This document shows positions 32,135 through 60,856 of a stretch of DNA of 64,000 nt, piece after piece. This DNA is from a virus, in IMG/VR virus record IMGVR_UViG_3300020180_000017, positions 8,552 to 72,551 of that record. One strand, written 5' to 3'. The translations under genes were made by a program, and so were the position numbers. Each line of letters opens with the position of its first letter. Within the stretch, counting starts at the first letter, position 1. The notes below the pieces were generated by a model. It did no database searches. It worked only from the letters and a program-made list of their open reading frames with translations, and had not been told where the DNA came from.

Positions 32135-32153
32135 TTTATTTATTTAAGATTAG

Positions 32154-32224
32154 TAGAGCTATTAGGATTCGAACCTAAACTAATCGCTTAGAAGGCGATT
32201 TTGCATCCATTACAACATAGCTCT
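32154..32224 (-). tRNA. tRNA-Arg(UCU), no encoded CCA
   Basis: AGAGCTA/TAGCTCT acceptor stem, ATCGC-CTTCTAA-GCGAT anticodon arm, TTAGG-TTCGAAT-CCTAA T arm; weak D stem. Confidence 0.85.
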
Positions 32225-60078: not shown

Positions 60079-60084
60079 AACATT

Positions 60085-60393
60085 AAAATTAGTCTTGCTT
60101 ATAATAAACAGTGAGTGCTGATATGCCAAAGTGATTTAGTTCATGAGTAATAAACTTCAGTTGAAAATGAAACACTAACAGCTTGGATACTCCAAGTGCA
60201 TTACGAAGCTAATATAAAGGTTTAAACCTTTGCACAGGTTACGTGCTAAAGAGAGTAACAGAAATGAGTGTAATCACAATCTGCTAAAAGATGTTGTTTA
60301 TTATAAGGTATAAAATTTACTAGGCTCTTGTAACGAGTAAGTCTATCGTTAAATCCCTTATATGTAGCTTTAGCAACTACCAAGATTAATTTT
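60085..60393 (+). ncRNA. Large multibranch structured ncRNA
   Basis: 13-bp closing stem AAAATTAGTCTTG/CAAGATTAATTTT, 15-bp stem CTTATAATAAACAGT/GTTGTTTATTATAAG, and many inner hairpins. Confidence 0.6.
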
Positions 60394-60402
60394 TAAACTT
60401 AT

Positions 60403-60664
60403 AAACTATTGTGTAGAATGTAGGCTTGGAAGTAGCCATCATTTAAAGAGTTACGAGTTCAACAGAATTATTTATACTTCTATATAAATGATTACTGAAA
60501 TACGGTTCCTGAATTGACAGGGTGGAAACACAATCTCTATATTTGAGCAAGTTAGGTGGAACTATGGTTTTTGAAAACTTTAAAGATAGAAGTCAATAAA
60601 GAAAAATGTATAGGAGAAACAACCGTCAGAGTATTTGGTGTAACAACACACTTCACAATAGTTT
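60403..60664 (+). ncRNA. Mimic of the 23S rRNA L11-binding domain (GTPase-associated centre, H43/H44) with 186-nt insertion
   Basis: AGAATGTAGGCTTGGAAGTAGCCATCATTTAAAGAGT...GTGTAACAACACACT versus E. coli 23S 1054-1105; closed by AAACTATTGTG/CACAATAGTTT. Confidence 0.85.
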
Positions 60665-60700
60665 TATTATTTACTAATCAAAATGTATTTTTAGATTCAA

Positions 60701-60823
60701 GAGTTAAGTGGCGGAATTGGTATACGCAGTGGTATGTTAAATGTGGAAATAGACATAATTCCTAATCCTTTATAAGGACTATCTGCTTGTCTTTTACTGT
60801 AGGTTCGACTCCTACTTTAGCTC
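60701..60823 (+). ncRNA. tRNA-like RNA with Leu-type D arm and expanded, branched anticodon region
   Basis: AGTTAAG/TTTAGCT acceptor, TGGCGGAATTGGTATACGC D arm, GTAGG-TTCGACT-CCTAC T arm. Confidence 0.7.
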
Positions 60824-60856
60824 CAAATAAAAATAACAATTTAACAAACAATAATT

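Follow-up and report, generated by a model that had tools for sequence, protein, structure and literature searches.

We investigated a 64,000-nt stretch of viral DNA (hereafter the window), which comprises bases 8552-72551 of the 72.5-kb IMG/VR record IMGVR_UViG_3300020180_000017, estimated to be 52% complete. The window carries a free-standing RNA element built on the GTPase-associated centre (GAC) of bacterial 23S rRNA, that is, on E. coli positions 1051-1108 (the tip of helix 42 (H42), H43, and H44), known as the 58-60-nt uL11/thiostrepton fragment. Sequence comparison and covariation establish this element as an RNA gene that has the secondary and tertiary signature of the GAC, is conserved as a family, is linked to tRNA genes, and has no dedicated protein gene. 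The RNA family is real and under selection, and it is apparently undescribed. No Rfam family matched the window element at gathering thresholds or at E values up to 10, and blastn of the intergenic region against GenBank phages at 1e-5 returned nothing. No description of this RNA was found in the literature outside subscription journals and supplements, and a catalogue of 10,006 viral candidate RNAs (PMC10690425) may list the motif unnamed.

The initial annotation, made from the sequence alone, had compared the element with E. coli 23S. When the sequence of E. coli K-12 rrlH was retrieved and aligned, blastn matched window positions 60415-60449 to 23S positions 1054-1088 (88.6% identity, E = 2e-6), and side-by-side reading gave identities at 31 of 37 positions in the 5' segment and 11 of 15 in the 3' segment (Table 1), exactly the 42 of 52 that had been claimed. 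The window differed from E. coli by G1056A, U1061A, A1067G, C1072U, A1089G, A1090U, C1092U, U1097C, G1099A, and U1101A. All changes singled out earlier were present, namely the conversion of the 1090-1101 pair from A-U to U-A and of the 1092-1099 pair from C-G to U-A, together with C1072U. U1061A was likewise found, and the stabilisation of the fold attributed to it holds with qualifications: according to PMC6239185, position 1061 is not conserved in nature and A1061 raises stability only with Mg2+, and position 1061 was A in only 35 of 90 family members (U in 35, G in 16, and C in 4). A1067G, on which the annotation had not commented, occurs naturally in some members of the Bacteroidota phylum. 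The observation was thereby confirmed as correct to the base; its interpretation was, as a whole, partly supported.

The anatomy of the element follows that of the GAC closely. The closing helix, which had been described as a plain replacement for H42, consists of 11 Watson-Crick pairs, followed by a U.U mismatch and then by A1054-U1105 and G1055-C1104. H43 has a 3-bp top stem, a 9-nt UUAGAAGCA-like loop, and a lower stem of 1057-1059 paired with 1079-1081, and the U1082-A1086 turn, G1087, bulged A1088, U1060, and A1077 are all present. A1067, a factor/thiostrepton contact, is replaced by G (60428). H44 has a hexaloop with G1093, U1094, A1095, and A1098 and is split by the insert, such that the helix is interrupted after U1090 and resumes at G1091, with A1101 at 60648. 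The tertiary triple is in the U/(U-A) state, formed by U1072 (60433) and U1092-A1099. Within the insert, which has the 186-nt length noted earlier, UAC (60453-60455) pairs with GUA (60631-60633), the previously noticed helix ACGGUU/AACCGU (60502-60507 and 60621-60626) and hairpin GUG-GAAA-CAC (60522-60531) were found, and the 3' end is a UUUG linker (60634-60637). Both H43 and the closing helix are reproduced in the minimum free energy (MFE) fold, although the main support for the structure comes from comparing further copies. No further rRNA flanks the element: Rfam detected no large-subunit (LSU) rRNA in the 72.5-kb record, and whole-window blastn against 23S returned this piece alone, with 35 nt aligned, in agreement with the initial annotation. 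The record contains a single copy of the element.

Table 1. Coordinates in the window of the GAC-like element, its parts, and the neighbouring tRNA-like gene
Feature	Position	Strand	Remarks
Whole element, 262 nt	60403-60664	+	Closing helix around the two GAC halves and the insert
Closing helix, 5' strand, in place of H42	60403-60413	+	Pairs with 60654-60664
GAC 5' segment (23S 1054-1090)	60415-60451	+	blastn against E. coli rrlH; also has UUAAA and GAGU
H43 hairpin (23S 1057-1081)	60418-60442	+	Loop UUGGAAGUA
Insert, 186 nt, between 1090 and 1091	60452-60637	+	
GAC 3' segment (23S 1091-1105)	60638-60652	+	H44 hairpin, then ACACU
H44 hairpin	60638-60647	+	G-U-[GUAACA]-A-C
Closing helix, 3' strand	60654-60664	+	
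tRNA-like gene	60702-60824	+	Rfam tRNA and ARAGORN

Relatives of the element were sought by scanning viral contigs with three patterns that fixed parts of the GAC core. A 26-nt degenerate pattern matched in 38 viral contigs, and in 37 of these the resemblance to 23S rRNA was confined to positions ~1055-1088; the other (L035) was a real 23S gene and was excluded from the family counts. A looser pattern gave at least 118 loci, and chance can be excluded because 119 of the 120 matches listed (the window included) were free-standing with the same split architecture. The third pattern, which left the H43 loop free, gave 74 loci, none of which was a real 23S gene. We thus obtained at least 152 free-standing elements in 152 of 157 viral loci, including 144 well-delineated and 114 distinct elements; 8 of the 152 elements were left out for scores below 18, as were 5 of the 157 loci, in which the 5' half was not clean. 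All delineated copies shared a common build, consisting of a closing helix, positions 1051-1090, an insert directly after U1090, and G1091 onward. As the initial annotation had anticipated, these phage copies carry variable inserts, with lengths of 27-679 nt (median: 164 nt; 114 distinct elements), and the inserts ended in UUUG in 89 and in UUUA in 15 of the 114.

The helices of the family covary. Positions 1058 and 1080, which were neither fixed by a pattern nor subjected to a pairing filter, formed G-C in 33, U-A in 32, A-U in 18, C-G in 6, and G.U in 1 of 90 elements. The register of the 3' half was set with pairing and motif bonuses, and motif-only placement was run as a control; pairing criteria played no part in defining the register for the covariation of H43 and the closing helix. 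With motif-only placement, closing pairs 1047-1055/1104-1112 were formed in 80-100% of 107 distinct elements (means in permutations: 42-89%), and sliding the partner by one position left 26-50% paired, except for 1055:1104 (88%). A1101 occurred in 110 of 114 elements, and the 1090-1101 pair was U-A in 109. At pattern-free positions, A1057, G1059, U1060, A1077, C1079, U1081, and A1088 were invariant (90 of 90), and the H44 loop was nearly so (G1093 in 114, U1094 in 113, A1095 in 112, and A1098 in 113 of 114), with scoring that favoured these letters. On this covariation, the helices and tertiary fold of the family are under selection, and the large family with covarying helices bears out the earlier view that the fold is free-standing and selected and not captured debris.

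The proposed covariation of the base triple was upheld at the level of the family, as position 1072 matched position 1092 in 110 of 114 distinct elements: the triple was C/(C-G) in 71, U/(U-A) in 29, U/(U.G) in 10, and discordant in 4. Grouping by insert homology gave 77 clusters, three of which contained both full states and two the U.G intermediate; the presence of both full states within three clusters indicates that the three-position switch is concerted and repeated. Real 23S rRNAs with U1072, mostly from candidate phyla radiation (CPR) bacteria and archaea, had U1092-A1099 in 29 of 35 cases and U.G in 4, and the covariation rule is common to the family and real rRNAs.

We then compared the element with 23S rRNAs of the likely host phylum. 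The large terminase and portal of the window phage match PHROG families, and because its terminase shares 22-24% identity with the terminases of crAss-like Bacteroides and Flavobacterium phages, the window phage is, on this sequence evidence, a distant crAss-like phage, probably with a Bacteroidota host. A sample of 151 genomes from the phylum to which a Flavobacteriales metagenome-assembled genome (MAG) belongs included 73 with a 23S match, and 30 loci (L195-L223 and L189) were read. All 30 had C1072/(C-G), U1061, and U1101, so the U/(U-A) triple, A1061, and A1101 of the window (each in 0 of 30) are not host letters; an insert at 1090/1091 was also found in none. The substitutions therefore do not simply match the host 23S, a possibility the initial annotation had considered, and the exact 26-mer of the window (with G1067 and U1072) occurred in 0 of ~185,000 species genomes. 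G1067 was present in 9 of the 30 sampled 23S, always with C1097, which is the combination in the window, and the related elements L255 and L230 likewise have G1067. This is a hint that the factor-facing loops of the window element may follow the host type. A search with the window terminase in 10 records bearing related elements or elements of the G1067 type gave a strong match in G161, a weak one in G002, and none in the other eight.

The only full homologue of the window insert was in L065 (76.9% identity over 238 nt), located on a contig of a MAG labelled Neisseriaceae. This homologue retains the structure proposed for the insert: the consensus of the two has 51 pairs, 11 of which are changed on both sides, including the closing pairs (UAC/GUA to UGC/GCA) and inner hairpins. 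Compensatory change in two sequences is suggestive of a structure under constraint. Further homologues of the insert were sought, with none in the viral scan and three chance matches in the metagenome scan, none of them GAC elements. In tblastx of the L065 and L190 contigs against the phage record, only the element itself matched; the L065 contig is thus otherwise unlike the phage, which suggests that the element travels or persists as a unit. L190, another contig of the same MAG, carries a second, different GAC-like element (497-567, loop UUGAAAGCA). Weak crAss-like terminase matches occur on four contigs of this MAG, and the L065 and L190 contigs may be of phage origin and have ended up in a bacterial bin. 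The base of the insert (URCGAG ... YAGAGYA-UUUG) is common to 19 distinct elements with interiors of 158-358 nt, and a k-turn reading of this base (URC-GAG ... YAGAG-YA) was considered.

Some relatives carry a second piece of the ribosomal factor site. A hairpin of the type GUA-N-GNRA-N'-GA, as in the sarcin-ricin loop (SRL), lay inside the insert of 12 of 114 distinct elements, compared with 0.53 expected by chance. Its core, GUACGAGAGGA, equals E. coli 23S 2655-2665 and stands within a hairpin. The bearers are the L002 cluster, L247, L124, and L255 (3340-3370), and L230 carries it as well. These RNAs thus combine the two rRNA halves of the factor-docking site, and this SRL copy in the inserts of relatives points to imitation of the site as a whole. 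In the composite forms (L255, L230, and the L002 cluster), the core, insert site, and UUUG/UUUA linker are as in the window, and L230 is identical to the window in G1067, U1072, and GUGUAACAACACAC. Their inserts are ~317-360 nt long and contain the SRL, whereas those of the window and L065 do not; the inserts of L230 and L255 align loosely to the latter. No SRL core was found in the window insert, and the window member is a GAC-only form. A hairpin in that insert (UAG-GUGGAA-CUA) was tried as a degenerate SRL and rejected, as it consists of plain Watson-Crick pairs and shows a G-C to C-G compensation in L065. L255 belongs to a complete 129-kb phage whose terminase and portal are 39% and 29% identical to those of the window phage, and its element is followed by tRNA-Ile(GAU) and tRNA-Ile(AAU). 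The L255 and L230 loci gave no tblastx match to the phage record at 1e-5.

Family members are linked to tRNA genes: a tRNA gene was found in the locus of 94 of 114 distinct elements, within 50 nt in 59, and the nearest one was on the same strand in all 94. No widely shared partner protein was found among open reading frames (ORFs) within 4 kb of the element in the 114 loci: the largest cluster of neighbour proteins covered 15 loci and had no Pfam match, and TerD and RNase H near elements were lineage-specific. Genes for uL11 and bL12 were not found in the 72.5-kb phage record (estimated 52% complete). With neither gene in the record and no common neighbour protein, any partner should be a host component.

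Outside phages, ~25 filamentous cyanobacteria had contiguous, insert-free GAC copies outside 23S rRNA, some of them in long tRNA arrays; the copy in L068 (2869-2924), for example, lies beside 14 tRNA genes. The 'free contiguous' class (27) to which these copies belong also contains a small number of archaeal 23S whose alignment to E. coli is poor. The cyanobacterial copies (L040-L104; e.g., L050 5582-5650 and L041 3177-3259) have conserved flanks resembling a longer H42, and Rfam scores them as LSU fragments at 54-59 bits. Such cyanobacterial tRNA arrays are induced under translational stress according to PMC8421152, in which the GAC element is unmentioned.

Considered as a whole, these features are best explained, with slightly better than even confidence on our part, by a stand-alone phage non-coding RNA that imitates the GAC off the ribosome as a decoy or sink. 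The RNA would be transcribed together with the adjacent tRNA-like gene and trimmed by host tRNA-processing enzymes. Sequence and covariation show that its ends are joined via the 11-bp closing helix and that it refolds into the GAC three-way junction (H43 and H44), with tertiary contacts retained, including the 1072/(1092-1099) triple as U/(U-A). Judging from the anatomy, the insert would exit the 5' strand of H44 after U1090 and return by the conserved UUUG linker. The parts of H44 could stay stacked, since the 3' strand (1100-1101) is uninterrupted, and the insert would project sideways as a separate domain. Host uL11 would bind the RNA off the ribosome, and the RNA would imitate the stalk base towards any agent that recognises or attacks this site in the course of infection, with host uL11, a GAC-directed toxin or antibiotic, and a translation factor as candidate targets. 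PMC6239185 describes the GAC as a small unit that folds autonomously and whose tertiary fold is a prerequisite for uL11 binding. As described in PMC8661411, the toxin Tre23 ADP-ribosylates H44 at 1095-1098, and thiopeptides bind the same cleft.

Several points weigh against this decoy. To be effective, a decoy would have to be expressed at a very high level, since the ribosomes it competes with number tens of thousands. No RNA sequencing run was listed for the window; the single run listed is a DNA run, possibly the one from which this sequence came. When left free, the H43 loop was relaxed: among 50 distinct elements, position 1067 was A in 37, G in 12, and U in 1, position 1068 was G in 34, A in 15, and U in 1, and positions 1069-1070 varied too, which speaks against exact imitation of the contact surface for EF-G and thiostrepton. 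In addition, the free-standing cyanobacterial copies do not follow the C1065/G1083 peculiarities of their host 23S, and host-tracking is therefore not general. The MFE fold of the window element was marginally better than those of shuffled sequences (z = −1.83), 7 of 200 of which were equally good. Moreover, where the insert lies with respect to the uL11 face is presumed from known structures.

A more specific version of the decoy can be put forward tentatively, as a possibility we hold at clearly less than even confidence. The replica of the stalk base, supplemented in some members with the SRL, may assemble with host uL11 into a false docking site that absorbs an agent directed at the genuine site; such an agent could be a defence toxin or antibiotic that targets the GAC or SRL, a translational GTPase, or a RelA-type sensor. 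The carriers would be large phages and long cyanobacterial tRNA arrays, and the RNA would be an rRNA counterpart of the phage tRNAs that outflank tRNA-cleaving defences. The window member would then represent a version with the GAC alone, adjusted to ribosomes of the Bacteroidota type (G1067).

The diversity of the inserts also admits a different view, which we regard as unlikely, namely that the GAC fold serves as a compact, nuclease-resistant frame, comparable to tRNA scaffolds, and that the variable insert is the effector, with no ribosomal ligand involved. The number of insert clusters and the wide range of insert lengths, the conservation and structure that inserts can themselves show, and the relaxed 1067-1070 loop would all fit a chassis of this kind. 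However, inserts can be as short as 27 nt and the cyanobacterial copies have none, so the core works alone. Loop letters that a frame could dispense with (G1093, U1094, A1095, and A1098) are nearly invariant, with the reservation that scoring favoured them, and the inserts that are recognisable again contain a piece of the ribosomal factor site, the SRL.

RelA depends on uL11. The element might accordingly act as a sponge against the stringent response, titrating new or exchangeable uL11 such that RelA loses the protein it needs and (p)ppGpp signalling is blunted. We consider this improbable. It shares the structural evidence for the decoy, and any uL11 must come from the host, as the phage record has no uL11 gene; yet most uL11 is already ribosome-bound and an infection lasts only briefly, the SRL carried by 12 of 114 relatives plays no part in uL11 binding, and insert-free copies in cyanobacterial chromosomes would imply a self-inflicted depletion of uL11, which is implausible.

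Mimicry of rRNA by mRNA leaders is an established mechanism, and the element could in principle be an operator of this kind through which a ribosomal protein regulates a downstream gene. Such a cis-acting leader is very unlikely here: the next gene is tRNA-like and not coding, a tRNA is located within 50 nt of 59 of the 114 copies, there is no gene for a ribosomal protein in the vicinity, and the Rfam leader families do not match. That the element is a neutral remnant, either a recent or decaying capture of host 23S or an rRNA fragment split by an intron or mobile element, is hardly credible and already contradicted despite the 88.6% identity of its 5' half to E. coli 23S and the match of G1067 and C1097 to some Bacteroidota 23S, given the lack of flanking rRNA and of rRNA exons beyond 52 nt, the 26-mer found in no species genome, the letters and insert absent from all 30 host-phylum 23S, the compensatory changes across 114 distinct copies with a conserved insert site and UUUG linker, the lack of any Rfam intron family at E up to 10, and the occurrence of the element, at 77% identity, on a contig otherwise dissimilar to the window phage.

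Compared with known systems, the element is nearest to the 23S GAC itself, with which it shares the same hairpins, UUAAA turn, bulged A1088, GUAAYA hexaloop, and 1072/(1092-1099) triple. In contrast to the rRNA, it stands alone, is closed by an unrelated helix, has H44 split by 186 nt after U1090, and is phage-encoded beside a tRNA-like gene, and its family differs in the U1090-A1101 pair (U1101 in all 30 sampled 23S), a free position 1061, and a relaxed 1067-1070 loop. The leaders of ribosomal-protein operons (e.g., the L10 leader, RF00557) are alike in offering an rRNA look-alike to a ribosomal protein off the ribosome, as the element would if it binds uL11; however, they are cis-acting parts of mRNAs and loose copies, whereas the window element is near-exact and trans-encoded, with no ribosomal-protein gene nearby. 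The species 1 and 2 RNAs of phage T4 (rnaC and rnaD) are stable RNAs among phage tRNA genes, with function unknown in the T4 annotation; they were considered as GAC-like and rejected, as neither contains GAC motifs. ROOL and GOLLD are large ornate phage RNAs near tRNA islands (for ROOL, PMC12286853), and their Rfam models did not match the window element.

If the decoy reading is true, phages carry genes for trans-acting replicas of a functional centre of the ribosome, a form of viral RNA mimicry undescribed for bacteria, and an rRNA decoy would join the known tRNA-based counter-defence repertoire of phages. It would also provide a uL11-binding RNA that is natural, folds by itself, and has a site at which insertion is tolerated, and it would account for gaps left without annotation in the tRNA regions of many cultured phages of the jumbo and T4-like types. 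In addition, the family amounts to ~100 independent natural experiments on the GAC tertiary fold, covering the triple, position 1061, and the 1067 loop.

The element sits in a 778-nt inter-ORF gap (60079-60856) of the window, whose G+C content is 29.6%. The gap contains no ORF of at least 70 aa, and a 69-aa ORF with a GTG start (60556-60765) was dismissed, as it overlaps the tRNA-like gene. The latter starts 38 nt (Rfam) or 71 nt (ARAGORN) downstream of the element on the same strand and is probably its co-transcribed partner. The Rfam tRNA match (60702-60823) scored 29.6 bits against a cut-off of 29 and has a 53-nt insertion after the D arm, and ARAGORN called a 90-nt tRNA-Ile(UAU) at 60735-60824. 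The gene is atypical in that its 5' part (acceptor strand and D arm) is apparently duplicated, at 60702 and 60735. Rfam over the whole window gave two tRNA matches only; there is an ordinary tRNA-Arg(UCU) at 32153-32224 on the minus strand, within the structural-gene block. On the 5' side of the element, 320 nt of non-coding sequence (60079-60402) has a weak fold signal (z = −1.72), no ORF of at least 70 aa, no Rfam match, and no similarity in any fetched locus, and it may carry the promoter. Scans for consensus promoters and terminators gave nothing above shuffles, with a consensus that does not cover Bacteroidota-type promoters.

Short-query searches at E values up to 1 also located unannotated copies in cultured phages: Cronobacter GAP32, Serratia BF, Erwinia pEa_SNUABM, Pectobacterium CBB, Yersinia fHe-Yen9-04, Xanthomonas XacN1, XaC1, and XbC2, Pseudomonas pf16, Astolliot, and Milchi, Aeromonas 4_4572, Paenibacillus Pd_22F, Ralstonia RSP15, and Acinetobacter ME3. 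Many cultured jumbo and T4-like phages have such a copy in an inter-gene gap, that of GAP32 starting at 289521 (L266 1501-1730). Prevotella Lak megaphages carry a diverged GAC+SRL-like form (L265 905-1300) followed by a tRNA. Finally, a MAG contig with a GAC element and six tRNA genes also carries a pistol ribozyme (L074 1325-1397; Rfam 64 bits).

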